NCBI GenBank assembly: GCA_016195045.1
Contig: JACQAJ010000022.1
Coordinates: forward strand, 1 to 39,772
DNA from: Candidatus Azambacteria bacterium
Lineage (GTDB): Bacteria > Patescibacteriota > Minisyncoccia > GWC2-36-17 > JACQAJ01
Length of the DNA: 39,772 bases
Direction: 5' to 3'
This document shows, in pieces, positions 5,801-39,772 of the stretch. The position numbers and the translations under genes are program-made. The notes under the pieces were generated by a model, which saw only the letters and a program-made list of their open reading frames with translations, had not been told where the DNA came from and did not search any database. Positions within the stretch are counted from its first letter, which is position 1; every line of letters starts with the position of its first letter.

Positions 5801-6511
5801 AATTTCTTCAAGACCCTTTAATTCTTTCCTTAAATCAATCGATTCAATAATTTTCTTGATCGCTTCAGTCCCTGATTCCACTGAAAAAACTGTTCCATAT
5901 TTTAAACTTAAATTATGATATTCAGTTTCAGTCAAAACTCGGCCAACCTTAATACCATTAAGATCGCCGCTGGCGTCATTCTTTAATTGTTTAAGACGAA
6001 GTTTAACGGTATCATCATTTATTTTAGGAAGTCCTTTAACTTTATTTTTATATTCAAAATCTAAATCAGCGAGAAGCCTCTCTTTAAGTTCAAGATTTAT
6101 TTTTGTAATAATATAGCTAGCAAAATAGACAACAGACTCAAGTTGAAGTTGGGGAATATCGAGAAACAAAGATAATCGAGAAGGAATGGCCCTTAAGAAC
6201 CATAAATGGCAAACTGGCATCGCTAATTTAATATGTCCCATTCGCTCTCTTCTAACAACTGAACGGGTTACCTCAACACCGCAACGATCACAAGTAATAC
6301 CTTTATATTTTATCCTCTTATATTTACCACAATAACATTCCCAATCCCTTGAGGGACCGAATATTTTTTCATCAAAAAGTCCGTCTTTCTCGGGTCGCTG
6401 AGTTCGATAATTGATCGTCTCTGGTTTAGTTACCTCACCATGAGACCAGGATAAGATATCCTCGGCGGAAGCTAATTTCAAACTAATTGCATTGAATTCA
6501 AAAGGTTTCAT
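2891..6511 (-). CDS. rpoC: DNA-directed RNA polymerase subunit beta'
   Basis: 1206 aa. Zn-finger CYCGKYKRIKYKGITCDRCG, catalytic NADFDGDQM, and the conserved trigger-loop/bridge-helix regions are present. Confidence 0.98.
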   Translation of the reverse strand: MKPFEFNAISLKLASAEDILSWSHGEVTKPETINYRTQRPEKDGLFDEKIFGPSRDWECYCGKYKRIKYKGITCDRCGVEVTRSVVRRERMGHIKLAMPVCHLWFLRAIPSRLSLFLDIPQLQLESVVYFASYIITKINLELKERLLADLDFEYKNKVKGLPKINDDTVKLRLKQLKNDASGDLNGIKVGRVLTETEYHNLSLKYGTVFSVESGTEAIKKIIESIDLRKELKGLEEIIPEASAQNKARLISRAALIKNFIVNKIKPVSMILQILPVMPPDLRPMVQLDGGRFASADLNDLYRRVINRNNRLKKLIELNAPEVIMRNEKRMLQEAVDSLIDNTVKKTGTTIISTKRPLKSLTDVLKGKQGRFRQNLLGKRVDYSGRAVIVVGSELKMDECGIPKNMALELFKPFVIGEIIRSELAYNVRAANRLIEEGVDEVWAILESVIKNKVVLLNRAPTLHRLSIQAFKPVLIEGLAIKIHPLVCAAFNADFDGDQMAVHLPITEEAQREAQEIMLSSKNLLKLSSGQPIVRPSKDIVLGCYFLTHLVENARGEGKIYASKNEAFVAYEQGFIDINAKIKVYLNSNIRKDENKFLETSVGRIIFSQALPKDFNFTEKEMNSGTLTELVEQLIDHCGFEAVGPRLDIIKRLGFKYATLSGITWSMFELKVPIEKAEIIKKAKLEIQKIDDYFENGFLTKDEHYDRVIEVWTEAIQDIQKRVPATLSKDSSVMSIINSKARGSSVQLHQITGVRGLVLNPSGEIIDLPILNSYKEGLSVLEYFISTHGARKGTADTALKTSEAGYLTRRLVDVSQDLIVREDDCLEETGLIIVRQETISLGQTLYLKILGRITLDDIKIKEERKEKILLEKGGLVTKEIAQIIEKSTIDSVRIRSVLRCKTKFGVCRKCYGYDLGHSSLVKLGEAVGIIAAQSIGEPGTQLTMRTFHTGGVAGVGDITRGLPRVVELFEARLPKTKALLSEINGKVIDVKINGKNKTIIIEPKLIDQTTTKAKKKSKKEKETSKGNIEYQILDFLKVLVKKGDLIKAGHQLTDGHIDLKELFRLSGKEAVESYVIGEVQKIYSSEGEAIHNKHLEVILRQMFSRVKIAEVGDSEFSVGEIVEKDIVLDNNKKLKASGKKQIKYTELLLGITKVAHYANSFLSAASFQETVKVLINASLSGKVDPLRGLKENVIIGRLIPSGTSFRK

Positions 6512-6590
6512 ACGATTTATGATTTATGATTTATGATTTATGATTTATGAATAATTTAAAATTCTTAAATCAAAAACCTTAAATCTAAAA
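6512..6590. repeat. Heptad-arm hairpin element, family A (rpoB-rpoC spacer)
   Basis: (GATTTAT)x5 at 6514-6548, then gaataatttaaaattc, then degenerate TTAAATC units. It fills the whole 79-nt spacer. Confidence 0.85.
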
Positions 6591-18548: not shown

Positions 18549-18899
18549 TTACCAGCTTCTGCGGTTGCGATCTCGATCGCCACCACCAAAACCACCACGA
18601 CCACCGCCACCATTGCCACCACTGAATCCACCGGATCGTGGAGCGCGAACTTCTTGTGGGCGAGCTTCGTTAACTATAAGATTTCGACCGCCGAGATCTT
18701 TGCCATTCCACATTTCAATAGCGGCATTGGCTTCTTCATCGGTAGTCATTTCGACAAAACCAAACCCTTTTGAGCGGTTTGACATTCTGTCAATGATGAT
18801 CACAGCTGATTCAACATTGCCAGCCTTGGAAAAGGCGTCTTTCAATTCTTGTTCAGTAGTCTCATAAGAGAGACCACCAACATATAATTTTTTTGCCAT
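18549..18899 (-). CDS. RRM-type RNA-binding protein with glycine/arginine-rich tail
   Basis: RNP2 KLYVGGL and RNP1 KGFGFVEM, plus a C-terminal GGNGGGGRGGFGGG tail. Confidence 0.9.
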   Translation of the reverse strand: MAKKLYVGGLSYETTEQELKDAFSKAGNVESAVIIIDRMSNRSKGFGFVEMTTDEEANAAIEMWNGKDLGGRNLIVNEARPQEVRAPRSGGFSGGNGGGGRGGFGGGDRDRNRRSW

Positions 18900-19065: not shown

Positions 19066-19169
19066 AAGTGAAAAGTGAAAAGTGAAAAATTATTCACTTT
19101 TAACTTTTAGTTTTTAGTTTTTAGTTTTTAGTTTTTAGTTTTTAGTTTTTAGTTTTTAGTTTTTAGTTT
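19066..19169. repeat. Heptad-arm hairpin element, family F, strongly asymmetric
   Basis: (GTGAAAA)x3 at 19068-19088, ttatt loop, cacttttaactttt, then (AGTTTTT)x8 at 19109-19164 plus a partial unit. The last units encode the pyrH C-terminus and stop codon. Confidence 0.85.
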
Positions 19170-23121: not shown

Positions 23122-23201
23122 AAACTAGTTGGTAGTTGGTAGTTGGTAGTTGGTAGAAAATCTACCGTTCACTACTCACTACAAACTACTCACTACAAAC
23201 C
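23122..23201. repeat. Heptad-arm hairpin element, family B copy 1 (rplO-secY spacer)
   Basis: (TTGGTAG)x4 at 23129-23156, aaaat loop, then ctaccgttcactactcactacaaactactcactacaaac. The rplO stop (23193-23195) lies inside the right arm. Confidence 0.85.
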
Positions 23202-23630
23202 AACCTTGCCGCCAGCCTTTTCAATACTCGTCTTGACTGACTTAGAAACTGAAACCCCGAAAATATTTAATTTCTTAGTCGACTCTGCTAAACCTAAAAT
23301 TTTAATACTAGGAATTTTCCCAGATACCAAATCTACTAATTTCCTGGCTACCAAACTCTTAGGATTAATATTCTCATTATTCTTAAAATTCTCATTAACT
23401 ATTTTAAGACTGACGATAGCTGGTCTTTCATAAAAACCCTTCATTTTCCAGCCCCGAAGTTTAGGAAATTTTTTTATAAGACCATAAATAGCTGGTCTGA
23501 TTTTTTTACTACCAGATCTTGCTGTTTGACCCTTGGTTCCTCGACCAGAAGTTGTTCCTCTCTTGCCACCTCGGCCAATCCTTTTTTGATCCTTCTTGGG
23601 ATATTTTGGTTTTAATTCATTTATTTGCAT
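23193..23630 (-). CDS. rplO: 50S ribosomal protein L15
   Basis: KRIGRGGKRGTTSGRGTKGQTARSG. Its position is between S5 and SecY. Confidence 0.95.
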   Translation of the reverse strand: MQINELKPKYPKKDQKRIGRGGKRGTTSGRGTKGQTARSGSKKIRPAIYGLIKKFPKLRGWKMKGFYERPAIVSLKIVNENFKNNENINPKSLVARKLVDLVSGKIPSIKILGLAESTKKLNIFGVSVSKSVKTSIEKAGGKVGL

Positions 23631-23669
23631 AATTTTTTCTAGTCATTCTAGATAATTAGTAAACTATAA

Positions 23670-24101
23670 TTATTTTAATATCTTAAATGCTTCTATGGCC
23701 GCCAAAGCATTATTTAATTTATTTTTAGTTTTTGACAAAATCTTGGCGGTCACATTTTCCACTCCCGCTAACTCACAAACAATTCTCACTGGCCCACCAG
23801 CAATAATTCCTCTGCCAATCTTAGCTGGTTTAAAGATCACTCGAGCTGAACTAAATTTGGCCTCTACTTCATAAGGAATTGTTTGATTCTCTCGGGGTAC
23901 TAAAATTAAATTCTTTTTAGCATCCCGAACTGCCTTATCAATCGAAGAAGCTACATCTAAACCATTGGCTAAACCAATCCCAACTTGCCCGTCATGATTC
24001 CCAACCACAATAGCGGTTCGAAAAGAAAAACGTTTACCCCCAGCTACCACCCGAGTCACCCTTCTAATATCTAAAGTTTTTTGATCAAATTCTGTTTTCA
24101 T
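23670..24101 (-). CDS. rpsE: 30S ribosomal protein S5
   Basis: RVTRVVAGGKRFSFRTAIVVGN. The ORF-track start at 24125 is a TTG inside repeat D1, so ATG 24101 (MKTEFDQ) or 24122 is more plausible. Confidence 0.9.
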   Translation of the reverse strand: MKTEFDQKTLDIRRVTRVVAGGKRFSFRTAIVVGNHDGQVGIGLANGLDVASSIDKAVRDAKKNLILVPRENQTIPYEVEAKFSSARVIFKPAKIGRGIIAGGPVRIVCELAGVENVTAKILSKTKNKLNNALAAIEAFKILK

Positions 24102-24195
24102 AAAATTAGTTATAAAGTTCATCAAATTATAAAGTTATAAAGTTCATCGAATTTCTGACTTTATAAACTTTCAACCTTACAAACTTTCAACTTAT
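24102..24195. repeat. Heptad-arm hairpin element, family D copy 1 (rplR-rpsE spacer)
   Basis: AAAGTTN-type units on the left (agttataaagttcatcaaattataaagttataaagttcat) and AACTTTN-type units on the right (gactttataaactttcaaccttacaaactttcaactt). Pairing is imperfect. Confidence 0.7.
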
Positions 24196-24558
24196 CTAAA
24201 AAACCAGCCCTCCTTCTCTCGCTCCATCAGCCAAAGCCTTTACTCGGCCATGATATTTATAACCGCCCTTATCGAAGACTACCCTTTTTATCTTAATTTC
24301 ATTAGCTAAAATAGCAAGCCTCTTTCCTACTTCATAAGCCCTCTTTATTTTCCCGACAATTCCCTGACTATCGATATTCTTTTCTGAAACAGCCATTAAG
24401 ACAGAATGACTGCCGTCATCAATCAATTGGCTGTAAATATAACTATTACTTCTAAAAACACAAAGACGGGGAGTAGCTTGACTACCTTTAATTTTGGCCC
24501 GAATTCGATTGTGGCGCTTATAGCGATTGGCTTTTTTAATTTTTGAATTGTTAATCAT
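24196..24558 (-). CDS. rplR: 50S ribosomal protein L18
   Basis: RLCVFRSNSYIYSQLIDD .. GGYKYHGRVKALADGAREGGL. Confidence 0.93.
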   Translation of the reverse strand: MINNSKIKKANRYKRHNRIRAKIKGSQATPRLCVFRSNSYIYSQLIDDGSHSVLMAVSEKNIDSQGIVGKIKRAYEVGKRLAILANEIKIKRVVFDKGGYKYHGRVKALADGAREGGLVF

Positions 24559-24631
24559 GATAGATTAGAAAATAGTAAGTAGAATAATTTCATAATTTCA
24601 AAACTTCTACTTTCTAGTTACTTTTTTTATT
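24559..24631. repeat. Heptad-arm hairpin element, family H (rplF-rplR spacer)
   Basis: tagaaaatagtaagtagaa (24566-24584) pairs imperfectly with ttctactttctagttactttt (24605-24625). Confidence 0.6.
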
Positions 24632-25180
24632 TTACTTGGCGGCCGTGGCTGCCTTCTTACCAGGTTTAAGTTTTATTACTTCATCTTCATATCGAACACC
24701 GGTACCCTTATATGGTTCTGGTTTTCTCATCTTTCGAATCACGGCCGCAACTTGACCAACCAATTCTTTATCCGCACCAAAGATAGAAATAATATTTTTA
24801 GTAACAACAATTTCGATCCCGTCTGGTACAGAATATTCAATCGGATTAGTAAAACCAAGATTCAAAACTAACTTCTGATTTTCACAGACAGCCCTAAAAC
24901 CAACTCCAACCAATTTTAATTTCTTAGTAAATCCTTCATTAACCCCAATAACCATATTAGCTATTTTAGCCCGATTTAATCCCCAAAAAGCCTTAACACT
25001 ATTTCCACCTCCACCACTTCTAGAAATCGTTATTCTATTATCAACTAATTCAATTTTTAATAGAGGATGAACCAAAAAAGAAAAGCTTCCTAATTTTCCT
25101 TTTACGAAAATTAAATTACCGTCAAGTTTTACCTCAACCCCCGTTGGAACTATAATAATTTTCCTTCCTATTTTAGACAT
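24632..25180 (-). CDS. rplF: 50S ribosomal protein L6
   Basis: The real start is MSKIGRKIIIVP at 25180. The 35 extra N-terminal residues in the ORF track are a read-through of repeat C1. Confidence 0.92.
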   Translation of the reverse strand: MSKIGRKIIIVPTGVEVKLDGNLIFVKGKLGSFSFLVHPLLKIELVDNRITISRSGGGGNSVKAFWGLNRAKIANMVIGVNEGFTKKLKLVGVGFRAVCENQKLVLNLGFTNPIEYSVPDGIEIVVTKNIISIFGADKELVGQVAAVIRKMRKPEPYKGTGVRYEDEVIKLKPGKKAATAAK

Positions 25181-25271
25181 AATATAATCCACGAATAGCA
25201 ACGAATTTATTACGAATGGCGACGAATATTCGTTGCCATTCGTGATTAACATTTGTTGGTATTCGTGTATT
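25181..25271. repeat. ACGAAT nested-palindrome element, family C copy 1 (rpsH-rplF spacer)
   Basis: cacgaatagcaacgaatttattacgaatggcgacgaat | attcgttgccattcgtgattaacatttgttggtattcgtg, with the symmetry centre at 25227/25228. Confidence 0.85.
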
Positions 25272-25661
25272 TTACCAGACTTCACAGATTAGTTCGCCGC
25301 CTAACTTAACCTTCTTGGCTTCTTTATTACTCATTAATCCTTTTGAGGTCGAAATAATCACTAAACCATGTCCTGATCTCACTGATCTAATTTCATCACT
25401 TTTTACATAAAGACGTTGGCTGGGACGGCTCATTCTCCTTAATCCAGTCAAGCTAGGGACCCCATTCTCGTTTAATAATTTTATCTCCAAAAATTTCTTA
25501 ATCTTTCTTCCTTTTCTGGATACAACGCCAACAAATTTATTTTCAGATAAAACTTTGGCGATCTCAAATTTTATTTTAGAATGAGGAATCGAAATAGAAT
25601 CGCGCTTTAAAATATTAGCGTTTCTTATTCTTGTTAACATATCACTGATTGGATCGGTCAT
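25272..25661 (-). CDS. rpsH: 30S ribosomal protein S8
   Basis: MTDPISDMLTRIRNA N-terminus, 129 aa. Confidence 0.95.
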   Translation of the reverse strand: MTDPISDMLTRIRNANILKRDSISIPHSKIKFEIAKVLSENKFVGVVSRKGRKIKKFLEIKLLNENGVPSLTGLRRMSRPSQRLYVKSDEIRSVRSGHGLVIISTSKGLMSNKEAKKVKLGGELICEVW

Positions 25662-25776
25662 AATAATTAGTTTATCAAGTTATAAAGTTGAAAGTTATAA
25701 AGTTAAAAAAACAAATACAAAATTAATTTTCTTTTTACTTTATAACTTGATGAACTTCTACAACTTTTAACTTATT
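25662..25776. repeat. Heptad-arm hairpin element, family D copy 2 (rpsN-rpsH spacer)
   Basis: Fills the spacer from stop to start. It is the reverse complement of the copy at 27011-27120, with about 6 differences in about 110 nt. Confidence 0.85.
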
Positions 25777-25962
25777 TTACCAGCTAGCTTTGGTCATTCC
25801 AGGAATTTTGCCTTCTCTCACTAATTCCCGAAAACAAATCCGACAAATATCAAAATCTCTCATATAGCCATGCGCCCGCCCACAACAAAAACAACGTCGT
25901 ACTAAACGACTTGAAAATTTGGGCTCTTTTTTACTTCTTGCCACGACTGATGTTTTGGCCAT
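25777..25962 (-). CDS. rpsN: 30S ribosomal protein S14, zinc-binding type Z
   Basis: 61 aa, with CFCCGR .. CRICFRE providing four Cys. Confidence 0.93.
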   Translation of the reverse strand: MAKTSVVARSKKEPKFSSRLVRRCFCCGRAHGYMRDFDICRICFRELVREGKIPGMTKASW

Positions 25963-26060
25963 AAACTAGCTTATTAGCTTTTTAGCTTGTAGCTTTTTAG
26001 ATAATTAGATTTTTTAAATTTGATCTAATAAGCTAAAAAGCTACAACCTACGAGCTAATT
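25963..26060. repeat. Hairpin element, family E (rplE-rpsN spacer)
   Basis: ttgtagctttttagataattagat pairs with atctaataagctaaaaagctacaa (23 of 25 positions). The outer arms are TAGCTTT-type 7-9 nt repeats. Confidence 0.8.
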
Positions 26061-26612
26061 TTATTTCTTTCCTTTTTTAATTTCAACTTTCTTTAATGGG
26101 AATCCTAGGGCTCGATATAATTCTACTGCCGTTTCCCGATCACTGGAATTTGTCACAATGGCTACTTCAAAACCAAAAATTAATCTGGAATTAGCCACCT
26201 CAGTAAAAATTATTTGCTCTTTAATACCGATATTCAAATTTCCTGCTTGATCGACATTTTTTAAATCAAGTCCCCTAAAATCACGGGACCGAGGCAAGGC
26301 GATACCAATCAATCTTTCCAAAAAATCATACATTCTTTTTCGTCGCAAAACTATCCGATAACCAATAAGCATTCCCTCTCTAAGTTTAAAACCAGCAATT
26401 GATTTTTTAGCCCTTCGAGGCTCTGGTTTCTGACCAGTAATTAAAGTTAAATCATGTTCAATCTCCTTGACTATCTTATCATCATTTGAATACTTGCCAA
26501 TACCAACATTAACTACTGCCTTAGTCATCCTCGGCACTAAATTTATATTGGAATAATTAAACTTTTTTTTAATTAATGGAATAATTTCTTTTTTATATTT
26601 TTCGGATAACAT
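26061..26612 (-). CDS. rplE: 50S ribosomal protein L5
   Basis: The start is probably MLSEKYKKEIIP at 26612. The ORF-track TTG start at 26627 lies in repeat C2. Confidence 0.93.
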   Translation of the reverse strand: MLSEKYKKEIIPLIKKKFNYSNINLVPRMTKAVVNVGIGKYSNDDKIVKEIEHDLTLITGQKPEPRRAKKSIAGFKLREGMLIGYRIVLRRKRMYDFLERLIGIALPRSRDFRGLDLKNVDQAGNLNIGIKEQIIFTEVANSRLIFGFEVAIVTNSSDRETAVELYRALGFPLKKVEIKKGKK

Positions 26613-26707
26613 AAATTTAATCCACAAATGGCGACGAATTAATTACGAATAGCGGCGAATATTCGTTGCCATTCGTGAATAATATTCGTTGGCATTCGTG
26701 TATAGTT
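26613..26707. repeat. ACGAAT nested-palindrome element, family C copy 2 (rplX-rplE spacer)
   Basis: ccacaaatggcgacgaattaattacgaatagcggcgaat | attcgttgccattcgtgaataatattcgttggcattcgtg, centred at 26660/26661. Confidence 0.85.
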
Positions 26708-27010
26708 TTAGATTTCTGCCTGACATTTTTTACAAATCCTGACTTTCTTATTATCAATAAATTTTACAGACTGTCTTGTTGGTTTTGAGCAATTTGGACA
26801 GACTATCATTGCTCGAGAAGCCGGAAAAGGCATTGAAATTTCTAACCGAGTTCCTTTTTCACCTTGTTTTTTTGGTTTAATATGTTTTTTGACAGTATTA
26901 AGTTTATCAACAATAATCTTGTCTTTTATCGGTAAGACTTTGACAATCTTTCCTTTCTTATTTTTATCCTTACCGGCTAATATTAATACATGATCGCCTT
27001 TTTTTAACAT
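26708..27010 (-). CDS. rplX: 50S ribosomal protein L24 (C-terminal CxxC..CxxC form)
   Basis: The real start is MLKKGDHVLILAGKDK at 27010. The KOW motif is present and the C-terminus reads CPNCSK..CKKC. Confidence 0.92.
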   Translation of the reverse strand: MLKKGDHVLILAGKDKNKKGKIVKVLPIKDKIIVDKLNTVKKHIKPKKQGEKGTRLEISMPFPASRAMIVCPNCSKPTRQSVKFIDNKKVRICKKCQAEI

Positions 27011-27120
27011 AATAAGTTGAAAGTTTATCAAGTTCATCAAGTTATAAAGTAAAAAGAAAATTAATTTTGTATTTATTTTTTAACTTTATAACTTTCAACT
27101 TTATAACTTTATAAACTAAT
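27011..27120. repeat. Heptad-arm hairpin element, family D copy 3 (rplN-rplX spacer), inverted relative to copy 2
   Basis: aataagttgaaagtttatcaagttcatcaagttataaagt / aaaaagaaaattaattttgtatttatttttt / aactttataactttcaactttataactttataaact. Confidence 0.85.
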
Positions 27121-27486
27121 CTAAACTAGATCTTCCGCCATTGAAGCAATCTTAGTGAAACCTTTTTCCTTCACTTCTTTGGCAATGGGACCAAAAATTC
27201 GCGATGCCTTGGGATCCTGACCATCCAAAATAACCACCGCATTCTCACTAAATCTGATATAGGAACCGTCAGACCGACGATAAGATTGTTTTTGTCTAAC
27301 AATCACCGCTTTGTGAACCTCTTTCTTTTTGACTGCCTTTCTTGGAGAAACTTCCCTAACTGAAACTACCACAATATCACCTAATTGACCATAGCGTCTA
27401 ACTGATCCTCCTAAAACCTTAAAACACTGGACCTTAATCGCCCCGCTATTATCAGCTACTTTTAAAATTGAACGTAATTGAATCAC
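27121..27486 (-). CDS. rplN: 50S ribosomal protein L14
   Basis: (M)IQLRSILKVADNSGA, with a GTG start at 27486. Confidence 0.95.
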   Translation of the reverse strand: MIQLRSILKVADNSGAIKVQCFKVLGGSVRRYGQLGDIVVVSVREVSPRKAVKKKEVHKAVIVRQKQSYRRSDGSYIRFSENAVVILDGQDPKASRIFGPIAKEVKEKGFTKIASMAEDLV

Positions 27487-27564
27487 GAATATTTAAAATT
27501 TATGATTTCTGATTTATGATTTATGAATAATTTTGAAATTCTTAAATCTTAAATCTTAAATCTT
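27487..27564. repeat. Heptad-arm hairpin element, family A copy 2 (rpsQ-rplN spacer)
   Basis: tttatgatttctgatttatgatttatgaa / taattttgaaa / ttcttaaatcttaaatcttaaatctt. The rpsQ stop (27556-27558) lies in the right arm. Confidence 0.88.
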
Positions 27565-27804
27565 GCTTACGACTTTCCATCTTTTCTCCTTAGAAATCGG
27601 TCTTGTTTCTTCAATAATAACGTTATCACCAGTCTTATATTCATCTTTTTCATCATGCGCTTTAAATCTGGCGGTTATCTTAAAATACTTTTTATATTTG
27701 GGATGTTTTTTAAGACGATTAACCTCAACAATAACCGTTTTTGTCATTTTATCACTCACAACTATACCTTTTATTTTTCTTTTTTTAATTACAACTTCTG
27801 TCAT
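27556..27804 (-). CDS. rpsQ: 30S ribosomal protein S17
   Basis: KGIVVSDKMTKTVIVEV .. HDEKDEYKTGDNVIIEETRPISKEKRW. I prefer ATG 27804 over the GTG at 27828, which overlaps rpmC. Confidence 0.9.
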   Translation of the reverse strand: MTEVVIKKRKIKGIVVSDKMTKTVIVEVNRLKKHPKYKKYFKITARFKAHDEKDEYKTGDNVIIEETRPISKEKRWKVVSKI

Positions 27805-27814
27805 ATTATTAAAA

Positions 27815-28006
27815 TTACTTTGATTCACCCAAAATAGTTAAAATTCTGGCTATATCTTTTTTTAAATTTTTAACTTCCTTAACATTCTTAGTTTTTTTAA
27901 ATTGATCATGATAGACTATCTCAAAAACTTTCTTCCTATTTTCACTAAGAAGATTAGTTAATTCTGTCTCCGAATTTTGACGTAATTTATTTGGTGTCAT
28001 AATCAT
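27815..28006 (-). CDS. rpmC: 50S ribosomal protein L29
   Basis: 63 aa helical protein between L16 and S17, with an LRQNSETELTNLL-type N-terminus. Confidence 0.85.
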   Translation of the reverse strand: MIMTPNKLRQNSETELTNLLSENRKKVFEIVYHDQFKKTKNVKEVKNLKKDIARILTILGESK

Positions 28007-28034
28007 TTTACATTTTAATTTTTAAATTTTAATT

Positions 28035-28454
28035 TCAATTAATTTCCCGTGTAACAAATTCAGTCTTAAATGGTAACTTTGAAGAAGCTAACCTAAAAGC
28101 TGACTTAGCTACTGATTTTTCTACACCATCAACTTCAAAAATAATTCGACCGGGCTTAATAACGGTCACATAATGATCTGGAGCTCCTTTTCCGTGGCCC
28201 ATCCCTGTTTCACTGCCTTTTTTAGTTACTGGCTTATCAGGAAATACCCTAATCCAAAGCTTACCACTTCTATTAAGAAAATTGGTGGTCGCGCGACGAG
28301 CCGCTTCAATCTGTCTTGCGTTAAGCCAAACTGATCCTAATGCCTTCAAACCAAAACTCCCAAAACTAAGAGAAACTCCTCTCGTTTCAATTTTACGGGA
28401 ACGACTTCTTCCTTTATGCCATTTTCTATATTTTACTTTTTTAGGCGCTAACAT
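28035..28454 (-). CDS. rplP: 50S ribosomal protein L16
   Basis: MLAPKKVKYRKWHKGR N-terminus, 139 aa. Confidence 0.95.
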   Translation of the reverse strand: MLAPKKVKYRKWHKGRSRSRKIETRGVSLSFGSFGLKALGSVWLNARQIEAARRATTNFLNRSGKLWIRVFPDKPVTKKGSETGMGHGKGAPDHYVTVIKPGRIIFEVDGVEKSVAKSAFRLASSKLPFKTEFVTREIN

Positions 28455-28536
28455 AGATTAGTTGATAGTTGGTAGTTGGTAGTTGGTAGAAAATCTACCG
28501 TTCACTACTCACTACAAACTACTCACTACAAACTAA
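28455..28536. repeat. Heptad-arm hairpin element, family B copy 2 (rpsC-rplP spacer)
   Basis: Its 74-nt core differs from copy 1 (23127-23200) at a single position (ttgatag versus ttggtag). Confidence 0.88.
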
Positions 28537-29235
28537 TTATTTAAAGACTTCTCCTTTATATATCCAGACCTTGATACCAATCGTACCATAGGTACAAAAA
28601 GCCACCACATTGGCATAATCCATATTCGCCCTTAAGGTCGATAGAGGAATTTTACCCTTATGAAACATTTCTTTCCGGGCAATTTCTGAACCATCGAGCC
28701 TACCGGAAATTAAAATCTTAATTCCCTCAACACCCTTAACTACCAATACCTTTTCCAGTGTCTGCTTTACTACTCGTCTAAACGGAGTTCTTTTTTCTAT
28801 TTGTTCAGCTATATTACCCCCCACGATCATAGCATAAGCTTCTGGATCTCTGATTTCATCGATTTGTAATTTTACCTCAAATTTATTTAATAGCAACTCT
28901 TTTTCATGGAAACCCAGTGATGGCAAAGTTGACATATCACTTCTCAATTTTTTAAGTATTTTGACTAATTCTTTTCTTAATGTTTCAGATCCAGTGCCAC
29001 CACGTCCAATTATTAAACCAGGTCGAGAAGTTTTAATAATCACATTGATTTGATTGCCATTTCTTTCAATCTCAATACGGTCAACCCCCATCTTTTTTAA
29101 TTTTAGATCAAGATATTGCCTAATTTCATAGTCTTCCCTAAGAAAAATCTTGAATGGCTTCAAGCTAAACCAGCGACTCTGCCAGTCTCTGGTAATTCCT
29201 AATCTCATTGAATACGGATGTGTTTTATTGCCCAT
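28537..29235 (-). CDS. rpsC: 30S ribosomal protein S3
   Basis: MGNKTHPYSMRLGITRDWQSRWF N-terminus with KH and S3-C domains. Confidence 0.95.
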   Translation of the reverse strand: MGNKTHPYSMRLGITRDWQSRWFSLKPFKIFLREDYEIRQYLDLKLKKMGVDRIEIERNGNQINVIIKTSRPGLIIGRGGTGSETLRKELVKILKKLRSDMSTLPSLGFHEKELLLNKFEVKLQIDEIRDPEAYAMIVGGNIAEQIEKRTPFRRVVKQTLEKVLVVKGVEGIKILISGRLDGSEIARKEMFHKGKIPLSTLRANMDYANVVAFCTYGTIGIKVWIYKGEVFK

Positions 29236-29317
29236 GTTGGTAGTTGGTAGTTGGTAGTTGGTAGTTGATAGTTGGTAGATTTCTACAAACTACTCACTAC
29301 AAACTACTCACTAATTT
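29236..29317. repeat. Heptad-arm hairpin element, family B copy 3 (rplV-rpsC spacer)
   Basis: The left arm is expanded to six TTGGTAG/TTGATAG units (29236-29279). The loop is short (attt) and the right arm is ctacaaactactcactacaaactactcacta. Confidence 0.85.
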
Positions 29318-29689
29318 TTATTCTTTCTTTGATTTTTTTATTTTTTTATCTTTTTCTTCTTTACTATTCAAAACCAAGGTCACATGACTGGTCCGTTTCT
29401 TAATCATATTAGATCGTCCCATAGCTCGGGGACGTTGTCTCTTTAAGGCTGGACCCTCATCAATAATAATTTGTTTAATATAAAAATTTTCGTTACTAAG
29501 ATTGAGATTCTTGGCATTAGCAATCGCTGAATTCAAGAGCTTTAGAATTGGCCCACCAGCCTTCTTGACTAAAAACCTTAACTGATTGACTGCTGTTACG
29601 ATACTTTTACCTCGAATTAAATCTGCTACTAGTCTTACCTTCCTAGGCGCCATTCTTAAATGATTTAAACTTGCTTTTACTTCGGACAT
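29318..29689 (-). CDS. rplV: 50S ribosomal protein L22
   Basis: The real start is MSEVKASLNHLRMAPRKVRLV at 29689. The ORF-track N-terminus (MIPKLLYSIFYILLI) is a translated heptad repeat. Confidence 0.92.
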   Translation of the reverse strand: MSEVKASLNHLRMAPRKVRLVADLIRGKSIVTAVNQLRFLVKKAGGPILKLLNSAIANAKNLNLSNENFYIKQIIIDEGPALKRQRPRAMGRSNMIKKRTSHVTLVLNSKEEKDKKIKKSKKE

Positions 29690-29768
29690 AATTAATAGAA
29701 TATAGAATATAGAATATAGAAGTTTGGGGATCATGAAATTATTCCAAATTCTATATTCTATATTCTAT
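29690..29768. repeat. Heptad-arm hairpin element, family G (rpsS-rplV spacer), near-perfect stem
   Basis: tagaatatagaatatagaatatagaa-g-tttgg (29696-29727) pairs with ccaaa-t-ttctatattctatattcta (29744-29767). That gives about 25 bp with one G-T pair and a 16-nt loop. The rpsS stop at 29765-29767 is inside the stem. Confidence 0.9.
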
Positions 29769-30073
29769 GTTTTAGTTTTCCCCGCATCAGCCGCTTTCTT
29801 TTCTATTTCTTTTTGCATTTTACCGCCATGCCTAATAAACTTTCTGGTTAAAGAAAACTCACCTAATCGATGGCCAACCATCTCTTCAGTTACAAAAACC
29901 GGTACATGAGTTTTTCCATTATGAACTCCGAAAGTAAAATTAATCATTAACGGAGAAATTACTGACGCTCTTGACCAGGTTTTGATGATCATCTTATCGT
30001 CAATTTTCATATTACCTATTTTTTTTAATAATTTTGGATCGATAAATGGACCCTTTTTAAGACTTCGTGGCAT
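29765..30073 (-). CDS. rpsS: 30S ribosomal protein S19
   Basis: [19 protein letters not shown] .. [13 protein letters not shown]. Confidence 0.95.
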
Positions 30074-30156
30074 GTTTTAATTTCAGATTTATGATTTATG
30101 ATTTATGATTTATGAATAATTTTGAAATTCTTAAATCTTAAATCTTAAATCTTCTT
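30074..30156. repeat. Heptad-arm hairpin element, family A copy 3 (rplB-rpsS spacer)
   Basis: (GATTTAT)x4, gaataattttgaaattc, then (TTAAATC)x3. It differs from copy 2 at one position over about 66 nt. Confidence 0.88.
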
Positions 30157-30987
30157 TTACTTCTTAGTTCTTCTTTTTACTATATATTTATTTGATATCT
30201 TACTCTTTTTTCTGGTTTTTACTCCAAGGGCTGGTTTACCCCAGGGTGTTTTTGGATACTTTAAACCAATCCCTTGTTTTCCTTCACCTCCGCCATGAGG
30301 ATGATCACAGGGATTCATGACTGAACCCCGGACTGTTGGTCTAATTCCCAGATGACGACTTCGACCCGCCTTACCAAGATTGATAAGAATACTCTCTGGA
30401 TTAGAAACAAGACCAATCGAAGCCCAACAATCACTTTTAACTTTTCTAATTTCAGAAGAGGGCATCGCGAGATGAGTTAAACCACTATCGTGAGCCATGA
30501 TTTTAACACTGCTGCCAGCTGCTCTGGCAAATTTTCCTCCTTGTTTTGGAGTTAACTCAACATTATGAACAAACTGACCAACTGAAATTCTGTATAATGG
30601 CAGACGATTACCAGGATTCAACTCAGCTGTTTCAGAATTAATAATTGAATCCTCAACCTTTAAATTCTGAGGCGCTAAGATATATCTCTTTTCACCATCG
30701 CTATAATTAATTAAGGCAATAAAACCTGTACGATTGGGATCGTATTCTATTGAAATAACCTTACCTGGTATATTACATTTATCCTGTTTAAAATCAATCA
30801 TTCGGAAGTTCCGTTTATGTCCACCGCCTTTATGACGAACTGTTATTTCACCTGATTGTTTCCGTCCCGATCTTTTTCTTTTACCAAAAGTCAGCCCTTT
30901 TTCTGGTTTCATTTTGGTAATATATTTTTTATAATCAACGAAAAGAGTTTGTCTCATCCCTGATGTTTTAAATCTTGCTTTAATCAT
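30157..30987 (-). CDS. rplB: 50S ribosomal protein L2
   Basis: The real start is MIKARFKTSGMRQ at 30987. The conserved MNPCDHPHGGGEGK block is present. The 53 extra residues in the ORF track read through repeat C3 and the rplW 3' end. Confidence 0.93.
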   Translation of the reverse strand: MIKARFKTSGMRQTLFVDYKKYITKMKPEKGLTFGKRKRSGRKQSGEITVRHKGGGHKRNFRMIDFKQDKCNIPGKVISIEYDPNRTGFIALINYSDGEKRYILAPQNLKVEDSIINSETAELNPGNRLPLYRISVGQFVHNVELTPKQGGKFARAAGSSVKIMAHDSGLTHLAMPSSEIRKVKSDCWASIGLVSNPESILINLGKAGRSRHLGIRPTVRGSVMNPCDHPHGGGEGKQGIGLKYPKTPWGKPALGVKTRKKSKISNKYIVKRRTKK

Positions 30988-31076
30988 AAAATAATCCACA
31001 AATAACAACGAATTTATTACGAATGGCGACGAATATTCGTTGCCATTCGTGAATGACATTCGTTGCCATTCGTGTC
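30988..31076. repeat. ACGAAT nested-palindrome element, family C copy 3 (rplW-rplB spacer)
   Basis: It shares an identical 45-nt core, acgaatttattacgaatggcgacgaatattcgttgccattcgtga, with copy 1. Confidence 0.88.
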
Positions 31077-31538
31077 TTAGATACCGAAATCTATTTTTTC
31101 TCCCACTTTTAAAGTCACAACAGCTTTTTTGTGACCTGGTTGCCAACCAATCACTCGGCCTCGCTTTTTTATCTTACCAGCAGTTTTCAAAATATTTACC
31201 CCTACTACCTTAACTTGATAAAGATCTCTGATCGATTTTTTAATTTCATTCTTACTAGCATCATCGATAATCTCAAAAGAATATTTATTAAGATCTTTTA
31301 AAATTGTTGCCTTTTCGGTAATAATGGGATTTCTCAAGGACTGACTAATTCGATTCTTAAAATCTGGGGTACCCAAAACAGGATTACCTTTAATAGTCTC
31401 GCTGCTTTTCCTAACTGAAGTTTTCTTATTTAATTTAGGTTTAGAAATTTTAGAGACAGAAGATTTATCAGTTATTTTCAAGCCAGCAGTATTTTTTGTC
31501 TTTCTAAAACCTGAACTAAATATTGGAAGTTTAAACAT
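31077..31538 (-). CDS. rplW: 50S ribosomal protein L23 with possible ~55-aa Lys/Ser-rich N-terminal extension
   Basis: The conserved core is RNPIITEKATIL .. KKAVVTLKVGEKIDF. The only ATG is at 31538. An internal TTG (..PVLGTPDF) would give a canonical-length protein. Confidence 0.85.
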   Translation of the reverse strand: MFKLPIFSSGFRKTKNTAGLKITDKSSVSKISKPKLNKKTSVRKSSETIKGNPVLGTPDFKNRISQSLRNPIITEKATILKDLNKYSFEIIDDASKNEIKKSIRDLYQVKVVGVNILKTAGKIKKRGRVIGWQPGHKKAVVTLKVGEKIDFGI

Positions 31539-31634
31539 CGCTTCACTCTCTTTACCAATTACGAATTTACCGCAAATTTACGAATTTTTTAAATTATTCG
31601 GATATTCGTGAATGATTCGTAATTCATAAAATTA
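31539..31634. repeat. ACGAAT palindrome element, family C copy 4, divergent (rplD-rplW spacer)
   Basis: aattacgaatttaccgcaaatttacgaatttttt / aaattattcggatattcgtgaatgattcgtaatt. Confidence 0.7.
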
Positions 31635-32279
31635 TTACTTTTCTTTATTAAGATTAATTAGTTTCTCAATCGAATCTTTAGTTAAAATTAAAAACTTATA
31701 ATCAAGCAAATCAATGACATTTAAATTTTTAGCCTCAAGAACTTGAACTTTGGGAAGATTTTTTGATGACCTGATAACTGTTTGATCTGGCATGGCTGTA
31801 ACAACCAAAGCATTGTATTTTAATAATTTTGAACTTTTAAAAATAGCATTAAAGATATTAGCCATTAATTTAGTTTTGGCTTTTTCAGTATATAAATCAT
31901 CAACAATAATTAATTGATTATCCTTAACTTTCCGACTTAAAACCATCAGCATCGCCTTATGCTTCATTTTTCTATTGATCTTTTTCTCAAAATTTCTTTC
32001 TTTTTTAGGACCAAAAGTAACACCGCCGCCCTTCCAAATTGGCGAACGAATAGAACCGTGTCTCGCTCGGCCAGTTCCTTTTTGCTTCCATGGTTTCTTA
32101 CCACCACCACTAACTTCACCGCGACCCTTGGTATGAGCGATCGTCTTACGTCGATTAGACATCATGGAAACATAAATTTGATGAACTAAATCAGAATTAA
32201 ACTTAACGTCAAAAATACCAGTTGGTAAATCAACCGTGCCATTCTTTTCTCCTTTTTTATCTAAAACATCAATCGTCAT
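31635..32279 (-). CDS. rplD: 50S ribosomal protein L4
   Basis: KGRGEVSGGGKKPWKQKGTGRARHGSIRSPIWKGGGVTFGP. Confidence 0.95.
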   Translation of the reverse strand: MTIDVLDKKGEKNGTVDLPTGIFDVKFNSDLVHQIYVSMMSNRRKTIAHTKGRGEVSGGGKKPWKQKGTGRARHGSIRSPIWKGGGVTFGPKKERNFEKKINRKMKHKAMLMVLSRKVKDNQLIIVDDLYTEKAKTKLMANIFNAIFKSSKLLKYNALVVTAMPDQTVIRSSKNLPKVQVLEAKNLNVIDLLDYKFLILTKDSIEKLINLNKEK

Positions 32280-32415
32280 AATTTTAACTTATAGTTTATT
32301 AGTTTATCAAGTAATAGGAAATATAAAAAATTTTTGAGGTCGAGGCTTTCTCTTTTACAAATTACATATAGAAAGCCGAGGCTCACACGAAAATTTTTTA
32401 CATTTCCTATTACTT
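32280..32415. repeat. Composite hairpin element, family I (rplC-rplD spacer)
   Basis: The outer arms are aagtaataggaaatataaaaaattttt (32309-32335) and gaaaattttttacatttcctattactt (32389-32415). The inner stem is ggctttct / agaaagcc. The rplC stop (32410-32412) is in the outer arm. Confidence 0.8.
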
Positions 32416-33051
32416 AAATATTTTTTTCTTAGCTTTTGTTCCTGATTTAGTTATTTCTAATAAGACTCCTTTTCTGCCCGGAACTGCGCCCGAAACAGCT
32501 AATAAATTATTTTCTTGATCTATCTTCATAATTTTTAAATTTTTAACAGTTTTTCTCTCTCCACCCATTCGCCCAGCCATCTTCTTACCCTTAATAACGC
32601 GCTGTGGCCAAGTGGAGCCAATCGAACCGGGCTCACGATGAGAGTGTTTAGTTCCATGAGTTCTGGTAGCTCCAGCAAAACCATGTCTTTTTACAACCCC
32701 CTGAAAACCAAAACTTTTTGAAATACCAGAGACATCAACTGACTCTCCTTCCTTAAATAAAGAAATTAAAATTTCTCTACCTCTTGCCATACCTGATTGA
32801 TCTTCATTAATCCGAAATTCTCTAAGATACCTAAGATTATTTAAATCCTTTAAATGTCCCGCTAGTGGCTTATTCATTTTCTTCCTTTTAAGATCGTAAC
32901 CAACTTGAACAGCCGAATAACCATCATTTTGCTTTGTTTTAACTTGGGTAATGACACTTGGACTCACCTCAATAACCGTTATTGGTGTTACCAAACCAGC
33001 AGCATCAAACATCTGAGTCATTCCTATTTTTTTACCAAGAATAGAATTCAT
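32410..33051 (-). CDS. rplC: 50S ribosomal protein L3
   Basis: ILGKKIGMTQMFD .. FQGVVKRHGFAG. Confidence 0.95.
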   Translation of the reverse strand: MNSILGKKIGMTQMFDAAGLVTPITVIEVSPSVITQVKTKQNDGYSAVQVGYDLKRKKMNKPLAGHLKDLNNLRYLREFRINEDQSGMARGREILISLFKEGESVDVSGISKSFGFQGVVKRHGFAGATRTHGTKHSHREPGSIGSTWPQRVIKGKKMAGRMGGERKTVKNLKIMKIDQENNLLAVSGAVPGRKGVLLEITKSGTKAKKKIFK

Positions 33052-33154
33052 ATATCATCAAACAAAAAATCGAGACTAGCCCGATTTTATTGTCTGGCTT
33101 TCATTTCTACTATCTTATAAGTTATTGGTAGTTATTCATTGAATAATAAAATGA

Positions 33155-34865: not shown

Positions 34866-34894
34866 ATCTTATTATTTATTATCTTGAATGTCAA
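34866..34894 (-). promoter_or_regulatory. Candidate promoter for tuf / S10 operon
   Basis: Minus strand TTGACA (34894-34889), 17-nt spacer, TAAGAT (34871-34866), about 75 nt upstream of the tuf ATG. Confidence 0.4.
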
Positions 34895-34922
34895 CAATCA
34901 ATCGCTCACAATCAATCGCTCA
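34895..34922. repeat. Perfect tandem 14-mer x2 abutting the candidate tuf -35 box
   Basis: caatcaatcgctca occurs at 34895-34908 and again at 34909-34922. Confidence 0.8.
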
Positions 34923-35092
34923 CCCGAATTCAATAATTAATTGCAACTCCTACTCTATTAGATAATACTTCTCATGGAGTCAGACCGTCAAATCTTCTGA
35001 TCTTGAATCGTGATTTCGACTTTGGTTTCGATAATTTCGAATTTCTTTAAATACCTCTTCTGTTGTTCTTTCTTATCAATAATGTTTTGCTC

Positions 35093-39147: not shown

Positions 39148-39772
39148 TGAAGTGGTCCTGGTTGTCTAGACAGTAATTGTGGATAATTTGTGTTGAACTG
39201 ATGGCGTTAAGATTTTGGATTTTTCTTTCGACCTTTGAAAATTAAAATACATATTAGCAGGGGTTTGTTTATTTAATGACTGGTGCTTTCGTTTATGGTT
39301 ATAAAACAAGAAGTATTCAGTTAGCCCAGTCTTGGCTTCATTAATATTTTGATAAGATTTTAAGTAAACATTTTCATATTTAACCGTTCGCCATAATCGT
39401 TCAGTGAAGATATTATCCAGACAACGACCTCGACCATTCATACTAATTTTAACCTTTTTATCTTGAAGTGGTTTCAGAAATTGTTCTGAAGTAAAATGGG
39501 AACCTTGATCGGAATGGATAATTTCTGGAGTCTCATATTTTAACTGAGCCTGATCGAGAGCTTCAATAATTAATTTAGTATCGTGTCGAGTCGAAGTCAC
39601 CCAGCCAACTATCTCTCGAGTGAAGGCATCGACAACGGTGGCTAGGTAAATAAATCTTCCTAGGAACCAAAGATAAGTGAAATCTGAGACCCAAACTTGA
39701 CTAGGACGATTGATTATTAGACTCTTAATTAAGTTAGGAATCATCGCATTCTTTTGACCTTGGTCAGATTTT
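39148..39772 (-). mobile_element. Partial IS3-family insertion sequence (3' end inside window)
   Basis: The OrfB-type transposase ends at 39166. The sequence tgaagtggtcctggttg starting at 39148 looks like an IS3-family terminus, which begins with 5'-TG. As far as I recall it resembles IS911-type ends. Confidence 0.6.
39166..39772 (-). CDS. IS3-family transposase OrfB (DDE / rve integrase core), 5' end outside window
   Basis: VWVSDFTYL, HSDQGSHFTS and YNHKRKHQSL blocks. The frame stays open upstream of the ORF-track Met to the window edge (..KSDQGQKNAMIPN). Confidence 0.9.
   Translation of the reverse strand, partial: KSDQGQKNAMIPNLIKSLIINRPSQVWVSDFTYLWFLGRFIYLATVVDAFTREIVGWVTSTRHDTKLIIEALDQAQLKYETPEIIHSDQGSHFTSEQFLKPLQDKKVKISMNGRGRCLDNIFTERLWRTVKYENVYLKSYQNINEAKTGLTEYFLFYNHKRKHQSLNKQTPANMYFNFQRSKEKSKILTPSVQHKLSTITV

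Follow-up and report, generated by a model that had tools for sequence, protein, structure and literature searches.

What fills the gene junctions of a ribosomal-protein operon whose genes no longer abut? The S10/spc region is among the most conserved and compact in bacteria, and the genomes of the Candidate Phyla Radiation (CPR) are streamlined, so that some 1.5 kb of palindromes with fast turnover would be unexpected there. Such palindromes are nevertheless present in the stretch of DNA considered here (the window), the whole 39,772-bp contig of a metagenome-assembled genome (MAG) of Candidatus Azambacteria (Patescibacteria/CPR), an ultra-small groundwater bacterium. The window has a G+C content of ~34% and carries on its minus strand, in the order tuf-S10-L3-L4-L23-L2-S19-L22-S3-L16-L29-S17-L14-L24-L5-S14-S8-L6-L18-S5-L15-secY, a run of genes with 21 junctions (L30 is missing from it; S3, L2 and SecY are MBI3458810.1, MBI3458813.1 and MBI3458797.1 at NCBI), with rpoB-rpoC on the same strand further downstream. 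An earlier reading of this DNA, referred to below as the original prediction, had described hairpins reaching from stop codon to start codon at most of these junctions. The comparisons reported here suggest that the spacers are probably copies of several small (~70-115 nt) non-coding palindromic repeat families, akin to short tandemly repeated repetitive (STRR) sequences, repetitive extragenic palindromic (REP) sequences and miniature inverted-repeat transposable elements (MITEs), with arms built of tandem units mostly 7 nt long. They are best regarded as selfish or neutral, an adopted role in the RNA (coupling, stability or processing) being a candidate only.

Hairpin Spacers Between Ribosomal-Protein Genes

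Measured after start-codon correction, spacers of 69-130 nt occur at 17 of the 21 tuf-secY junctions and 16 of them are essentially a single imperfect hairpin, the number originally given; the S10-L3 spacer differs from the other 16 in having two hairpins, one of them terminator-like. Scored against dinucleotide shuffles, the 17 spacers and that of rpoB-rpoC fold with a mean z of -5.2 (z <= -3 in 16/18), as compared with -0.54 for 60 coding tiles of the same operon (2/60 at z <= -3) and -0.69 for 33 tiles of other intergenic DNA (4/33), differences with Mann-Whitney p values of 4e-10 and 2e-8, respectively. In a second folding run on seven representatives, z ranged from -3.8 to -8.3 and 0/200 shuffles were equally stable; the compact L16-L29 spacer of the window gave no fold. 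Folding no better than that of shuffled sequence, which would have spoken against the prediction, is thus not what is seen.

A scatter of copies at random, including inside genes and with target-site duplications, had been named as what would speak against the prediction. Arrays of period 7, located across the window with Tandem Repeats Finder (TRF), lie in intergenic DNA only, nearly all of them in junction spacers and one short array in another intergenic region, and such duplications were not found. The arrays hold 3-9 copies of units such as GATTTAT/TCTTAAA, TAGTTGG/TCACTAC-ACTACAA and ATAGAAT/TATTCTA and are at most 65 nt long. Heptad arms, ascribed originally to nearly all elements, do characterise most families, but units alternate between 7 and 8 nt in the AAAGTT family and recur every 8 nt in the TAGCTT family and every 10-11 nt in the ACGAAT family, and the L3-L4 and L6-L18 spacers have no clear tandem unit. 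The periodic recurrence of mismatches is confirmed by arm-versus-arm alignment, which places a mismatch at a fixed position once per heptad. This pattern would result if one founder mismatch had been multiplied along each of the two arms, and the arms may lengthen and shorten by replication slippage in 7-nt steps, as judged from 7-nt differences between copies and strains and from a one-armed expansion at the end of a pyrH-like gene, described below.

The elements run from the stop codon to a few nucleotides short of the start codon. In predicted mRNA folds from the window and its closest relative (n = 32), the median distance from stop codon to first paired base is 1 nt and that from last paired base to AUG is 7 nt, so that the 0-10 nt originally stated for both holds at the median, but not in a few folds with 3' gaps of 19-32 nt. 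The further idea that folding serves to bring stop and start together is weakened, because a palindrome that had inserted into a ~10-nt spacer would leave stop, stem and start close together automatically.

Copies at Different Junctions and Their Turnover

Within the window, identity is 89-95% among the three copies of family A, 86-99% among the three of family B and 88-91% among the three of family E. Over its full length, asymmetric loop included, the L14-L24 spacer matches the reverse complement of the complete S14-S8 spacer at 105/112 nt, which makes them one element at two junctions in opposite orientations. In the window and the closest relative taken together, families A and D are both found in both orientations.

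That relative, the closest found among comparison loci designated by L-numbers, is represented by L025 (ENA) and L026 (JGI), in which S3 is 90% identical; L025 coding DNA is 76-90% identical to the window at the nucleotide level. Over the run of junctions that starts at L22-S3 and finishes at L15-secY, 13/13 have hairpins of 59-118 nt in L025; L16-L29 and L29-S17, both compact in the window, are among them. In this comparison, of a kind that had been proposed originally, the families at orthologous junctions are mostly different, and families A, C and D find their matches at non-orthologous ones: the L025 L22-S3 spacer matches the S19-L22 element of the window, the S5-L15 spacer its three family-A sites, and the S3-L16 and S14-S8 spacers its family D. 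Some ten L025 junctions carry a further family, G, that is absent from the window and whose (CTAGCNN)n arms flank a variable central hairpin; its copies, on contigs from JGI sample Ga0213870, were grouped by CTAG clustering. The same sample contains another population (L036, L038), ~89% identical to L025 in nucleotides, which has a different family at 3/7 shared junctions and, at S8-L6, a spacer that differs from that of L025 in length by one 7-nt unit. When a family has been lost from a junction, another is usually found there instead of an empty junction. Junctions with a family in common show a spacer identity of 95.4%, as against 85.1% for 4-fold degenerate sites in the genes on either side (p = 7e-5).

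At the level of sequence, these comparisons demonstrate that copies have spread among stop-to-start junctions, being near-identical at different junctions, present in both orientations and at non-orthologous junctions in relatives, and that they turn over within the time that sequences take to diverge by a few per cent. Spacer identity above that of 4-fold sites would be expected of a young or actively re-seeded family, and fast replacement combined with high identity of copies is the signature of a family that is being actively copied; selective constraint is the alternative reading of both. Of the roles originally listed, the selfish, MITE/REP-like option fits best, given the multiple copies, both orientations, non-orthologous junctions, patchy occupancy and the balanced non-canonical pairing discussed below.

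An origin in place, with heptamer microsatellites growing from the stop region and made symmetrical by intrastrand template switching, would involve no copying between junctions. The 7-nt length differences between copies and strains, the one-armed pyrH expansion and the frequent presence of the stop codon within the first unit all agree with it, as does the finding that in many prokaryotes no long simple repeat is more frequent than the heptanucleotide type (Mrazek 2007, summarised in PMC4679880). Yet non-repetitive loops and flanks are 90-99% identical across unrelated junctions, also when inverted, and relatives carry the same families at different junctions, which largely refutes growth in place as the sole explanation and leaves it very improbable.

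An assembly or binning artefact, the other source of doubt raised originally, can be given practically no weight. Repeats can generally mislead assemblers, and nothing more specific favours it; against it, the arrays do not exceed 65 nt, the same architecture recurs in independent assemblies and samples from NCBI, ENA, JGI and Logan, L025 and L026 are 99.1% identical including their spacers, and Logan and NCBI contigs agree. Such repeats can, all the same, break assemblies within the very block of marker genes that is used for CPR phylogeny.

The elements also mislead gene callers, which read them as false N-terminal extensions. In the public gene calls for L025, L29, S17, L14, L24, L5, S14 and S5 carry a false N-terminus of the VLFASSCVFM type, encoded by the family-G 3' tail GTGCTTTTTGCTAGTAGCTGTGTTTTTATG (L025 1544-1570, 1837-1863, 2201-2227, 2681-2707, 3096-3122, 3766-3792 and 5654-5680), and the mechanically called open reading frames (ORFs) of L2, L22, L24, L5, L6, S5 and S17 in the window also run into elements.

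Bias to Core Operons and Distribution Among Lineages

Elements are present at 17/22 internal junctions of tuf-secY and rpoBC versus 1/15 other co-directional junctions of the window (Fisher p = 3e-5), and all of those in the window (18/18) lie at co-directional junctions. Against 18 elements in the 40 kb of the window stand 39 distinct family-G copies in the Ga0213870 contigs of the relative. A pattern scan of metagenomes for family G returned 12 contigs from the relative's sample; ten matches from outside Ga0213870 were dismissed as chance, with a possible exception in L048, where a short array precedes an ATG. The junctions with family G are those of atpE-F-H-A-G, groES-groEL, L10-L7/L12, rpoA-L17-L13-S9-L32-nusB, S13-S11-S4, rpoB-rpoC and S10/spc, and the family is also present upstream of a ClpB-like AAA+ gene; non-core junctions on the same contigs have other repeats or none. 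The elements thus cluster inside operons of high expression, at the internal junctions of those for ribosomal proteins, RNA polymerase, ATP synthase and chaperones, and not in intergenic DNA at large. In the atpA-atpG spacer of L033 (354-556), 203 nt long, elements are nested, a CTCGAAA/TTTCGGA heptad hairpin lying inside family-G arms. On the groESL contig of the relative, L041, a G+C-richer palindromic repeat, TGTCATCCTGAG...GAAGGATCT...CTCAGGATGACA, occupies non-core intergenic DNA (1-412, 677-936 and 2493-2612) and constitutes a second repeat class in that genome.

Among other lineages, junctions are compact and arrays absent in Portnoybacteria (L001) and at nine non-CPR loci; elements are few in L027 and L028, with S3 64-65% identical, and numerous in L009 (Torokbacteria), L011 and L017, where the heptads are different ones. 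Heptads also vary widely within one genome. Judged from these sequences, compact junctions look ancestral and colonisation lineage-specific, similar colonisation being seen in several other Patescibacteria. Unrelated repeated palindromes of 160-240 nt lie at ribosomal-protein junctions in L003 (3166-3379, 4243-4417, 7099-7338) and L012 (6780-6954, 8003-8166, 10634-10852), so colonisation of this operon goes beyond the heptamer type. The IMG/VR contigs L058 (~4650-4850), L063 (~6330-6530) and L064 (~2300-2420) contain nested hairpins with CTACCAA/GGTAGTT arms (also GCGAAAA/TTTTCGC), and the architecture is thus present outside CPR.

Palindromes of the DNA or Structures of the mRNA

The elements would be co-transcribed with their operons. 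Identity as intrinsic terminators was rejected, the repeat hairpins being devoid of a G+C-rich stem followed by a U run (the sole terminator-like site in a spacer is that of S10-L3), and from this absence it follows that they should be transcribed through, with imperfect hairpins in the mRNA that would hide the next start region. If mobile repeats are indeed at hand, insertion may be tolerated chiefly at sites where closely spaced ribosomes, and initiation coupled to termination, melt the hairpin again and again, a tolerance that would explain the bias to highly translated operons; transcription-linked targeting or a real benefit are alternatives for that bias.

A real benefit is at the centre of a serious but unlikely alternative, that the hairpins are intercistronic RNA elements adopted by the host, which either sequester starts and couple them to termination, favouring equimolar synthesis, or act as barriers to 3'-exonucleases or as RNase III sites, with an influence on how long operon mRNAs decay. 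It overlaps with the repeat-family reading, and under it a mobile origin would take second place. Enrichment at junctions inside operons of high expression, near-complete occupancy in L025, the replacement of a lost family by another, conservation above 4-fold sites and the orientation of family G, the same in 37/39 copies, are all in its favour, as are the like roles proposed for STRR hairpins (PMC2670836). So is pairing upstream of the starts: in predicted folds, positions -20 to -1 before AUG are mostly paired, with an unpaired probability of 0.39 that increases to 0.46 (p = 0.015) when the 13 nt after the stop codon are forced open, as by a terminating ribosome. This unmasking in silico is, however, a small effect, compact-junction relatives do without any hairpins, and families A and D occur in both orientations. 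Counts on the mRNA strand, moreover, show no asymmetry: 21 G·U pairs stand against 25 A·C pairs in the window, and 75 against 58 in the 39 family-G copies. For several copies of family E the antisense strand gives the more stable fold. Together, these two properties indicate that the palindromy belongs to the DNA duplex and is not tuned to the mRNA.

That the genome is Shine-Dalgarno-poor also favours this alternative. The original observation that starts downstream of hairpins lack such sequences is correct, in that runs of this kind are missing before 22/22 operon genes, but 19/22 other genes are alike in this respect, and the absence is thus a genome-wide trait and not a property of hairpin junctions.

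A stricter version, slightly less probable again, has the hairpins as punctuation that the host requires: each would hide the next initiation region, such that core cistrons are translated only by ribosomes that have just terminated, or would allow the transcript to be cut or stabilised cistron by cistron, with mobile families re-seeding the sites. It would explain both the refilled junctions and conservation above synonymous sites.

Several observations weigh against the elements being mobile repeats, the reading that is preferred here. Neither the two inverted family-D copies nor the family-E copies are flanked by a target-site duplication, and insertion replaces the whole spacer, no recognisable remnant of an empty site being seen. 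Transposase genes are situated at both ends of the contig, each cut by the end (IS256 type, Transposase_mut, 3-857; IS3 type, rve, 39166-39744 on the minus strand). The spacers have no similarity to these genes or their flanks, and no parent element or related transposase was found in the window. A benefit to the host would account equally well for the extreme bias to essential operons of high expression in so streamlined a genome, for near-saturation in L025, for the preferred orientation of family G and for spacer conservation exceeding that of synonymous sites.

Other signals were sought in the same DNA. The spacers have no Rfam match at gathering score, with only noise-level hits to miRNA precursors (E 0.08-0.9), and promoter-like sites number 67 versus 45.6 +/- 7.6 expected, a slight excess judged uninformative in AT-rich DNA. 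A role of the heptads as frame-independent stop signals was considered and is not relied on, the enrichment being weak: stops in all three frames are present in 7/17 elements on the sense strand and 9/17 on the antisense strand versus 22% expected, and a stop codon is contained in 28/42 distinct units versus 52% expected.

Relation to Known Repeats and Hairpins

The original statement that no element class with this architecture had been described does not stand, as STRR hairpins (PMC2670836) and the heptamers of Beggiatoaceae (PMC4679880) precede it. In cyanobacteria, STRR sequences consist of 7-bp units in tandem and give rise to hairpins that separate co-transcribed genes, hupS and hupL for instance; roles in transcript stability or translational coupling have been proposed for these hairpins (PMC2670836). 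Shared with the elements described here are tandem 7-bp units and inverted arrays that make hairpins between co-transcribed genes. Numerous dispersed copies in intergenic DNA, of several unit families per genome, may be a further trait in common, to judge from the elements of the window and the family-G copies of the relative. The Nostoc PCC 7120 units ttgttag, taggggt and ttgtcag (PMC2408588) equal or approximate TAGTTGT in L011, TAGGGTA in L033 and TTGTCAG in L003, although the likeness is one of architecture, as such short units cannot establish homology. STRR hosts are heterocystous or filamentous cyanobacteria and those here are Patescibacteria with very small genomes, a criterion that is historical and not structural. 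Unlike STRR sequences, the present elements fill most S10/spc junctions and other core operons, some of their families use units of 8 or 10-11 nt, and whole hairpins, loops included, act as the repeated units that move between junctions. STRR-type hairpins have been without an established function since 1990, and their concentration in core operons of a distant, Shine-Dalgarno-poor phylum sharpens the test of coupling and mRNA decay.

The direct repeats of the heptamer TAACTGA in marine Beggiatoaceae, some cyanobacteria and Bacteroidetes (MacGregor 2015, PMC4679880) likewise contain a stop codon and are intergenic, often just before starts without ribosome-binding sites and in some cases in ribosomal-protein operons, with a patchy phylogeny (PMC4679880). 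They differ in having one unit, in direct orientation and without predicted structure (1/170 sets is inverted), whereas the units here are many, inverted and hairpin-forming. REP sequences of Proteobacteria, together with the bacterial interspersed mosaic elements (BIMEs) and REP doublets forming hairpins (REPINs) that they compose, are mobilised by REP-associated tyrosine transposases (RAYTs); they too are short imperfect palindromes of high copy number that avoid promoters, lie between genes that are co-directional or convergent, share the transcript of their operon and are deemed selfish with occasional adopted roles (PMC3733652; PMC3116915). REP sequences are, however, 20-40 bp long, with an unpaired GTAG/CGTC tag and no tandem-unit arms, as opposed to 70-115 nt here. 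No conserved end tag is common to the families (GTAG lies inside family-B heptads), and no Y1 transposase (RAYT) was found among the ORFs of the window.

MITEs derived from insertion sequences (IS), such as Correia, ERIC, RUP and Nezha, are similar in being 70-150 nt long and non-coding, with inverted-repeat ends, hairpins in the mRNA and insertion polymorphism between strains. Correia elements are substrates of RNase III. Unlike in MITEs, no target-site duplication, related IS or conserved terminal inverted repeat was found for the elements here, whose arms are tandem arrays. Imperfect hairpins between cistrons of a polycistronic mRNA, a possible working analogy, include the RNase III sites of phage T7 early mRNA and the stabilisers of Rhodobacter puf and E. 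coli malEFG. These are single conserved sites, defined by experiment, and not repeat families or heptamers. Among the papers searched, no description of such repeat hairpins in Patescibacteria/CPR was found. They would thus be STRR-like repeat hairpins in a new phylum, where they are apparently undescribed, with an unusual density in core operons and whole hairpins as mobile families.

The Individual Elements of the Window

Coordinates of the window in this section are on the minus strand, except for those of the direct repeat upstream of tuf. Family A is found at L2-S19 (30074-30156; z -4.9; 95% and 90% identical to the other two copies), where GAUUUAA x3 pairs with AUAAAUC x4 with one A·A mismatch per heptad; at S17-L14 (27487-27555; z -4.0), with the S17 stop codon in the first heptad; and at rpoB-rpoC (6512-6590; z -6.4), a true third copy, 89-90% identical to the other two, with five AUAAAUC in the 3' arm. 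Family B occupies L22-S3 (29236-29317; z -5.4; 86-87% identical to the other copies), where GUAGUGA/GUAGUUU pairs with CUACCAA x6, S3-L16 (28455-28536; dG -28.3, z -5.0) and L15-secY (23122-23200; z -4.5), the last two identical at 74/75 nt and the latter with the L15 stop codon (23193-23195) inside the 5' arm. Family C, UAGAAUA/UUCUAUA, is represented in the S19-L22 spacer (29690-29764; z -5.2), with the S19 stop codon in the first heptad and a related copy at L22-S3 of L025. The predicted S19-L22 hairpin has competing registers shifted by 7 nt, with a minimum free energy (MFE) structure frequency of 0.12 and an empty centroid; several registers are available because the arms are perfect heptad arrays.

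Family D, with AAAGUUAU/AAAGUUG units that alternate between 7 and 8 nt, is found at L14-L24 (27011-27120; z -3.8), with an asymmetric AU-rich loop, and in inverted orientation at S14-S8 (25662-25776; z -3.7), the copies being 94% identical when one is inverted and 78% in the same orientation; a family-D-like hairpin, 73-76% identical to these copies, lies at L18-S5 (24102-24195; dG -22.1, z -3.9). Family E, with ACGAAT spaced 10-11 nt, occupies L23-L2 (30988-31076; dG -41.7, z -8.3 to -8.5; 89-91% identical to the other two), L24-L5 (26613-26707; dG -29.5, z -4.1) and S8-L6 (25181-25271; dG -33.0, z -6.2), and on the plus strand the last two reach a better dG of -35.5 and one of -46.5, respectively. 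The hairpin at L4-L23 (31539-31634; dG -20.8, z -2.6), of the ACGAAT type and 70% identical to the L23-L2 copy, is a divergent relative of family E. Family F, at L5-S14 (25963-26060; z -6.9), has UAGCUUNU units with a period of ~8 and arms that resemble family G of the relative; its heptads are also present in L011. The L3-L4 spacer (32280-32409; dG -31.9, z -5.6) comprises a 95-nt palindrome without tandem units, of which no second copy was found among the sequences compared, and then a half-arm remnant of family D, and the L6-L18 spacer (24559-24631; dG -11.8, z -2.1) forms a weak hairpin whose unit is not clear.

Elements of the same kind had also been claimed for rpoB-rpoC and for the 3' end of the pyrH-like gene; the former is indeed a copy of family A, but the latter (19066-19169), an (AAACUAA)x9.3 array followed by (UUUUCAC)x3, is mostly one-armed, its partner being weak. 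The final 14 nt of the AA_kinase ORF, stop codon included, lie within this element. Just downstream of this array lies the gene for a 116-aa RRM_1 RNA-binding protein (18549-18899).

Proteins that read regularly spaced triplets offer one more, highly improbable, explanation, namely that the arrays bind an oligomeric RNA-binding protein that contacts a trinucleotide every 7 nt. HutP recognises UAG-N4 repeats and TRAP reads triplet repeats. Families B, C, F and G do have UAG at 7-nt intervals, and an RRM protein gene adjoins one array; against this, families A, D and E are without UAG, units vary widely within one genome, no candidate protein has been identified, and binding of this type needs no palindromic arrangement.

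The S10-L3 spacer (33052-33154) ends in the terminator-like hairpin AAAATCGGGCTAGTCTCGATTTT followed by TTGTTTG. This hairpin has no Rfam match and may be an attenuator or a ribosomal-protein leader before L3; it is kept in L027 (972-1245) and L028 (975-1182), at 64-65% identity of S3. Upstream of tuf, a region of 302 nt includes a perfect direct repeat of 14 nt, ACAATCAATCGCTC, in 2.1 copies (34894-34923). Finally, L23 (31077-31538), at 150-153 aa, has an N-terminal extension of ~55 residues, with its length kept in L027, L028 and L029.

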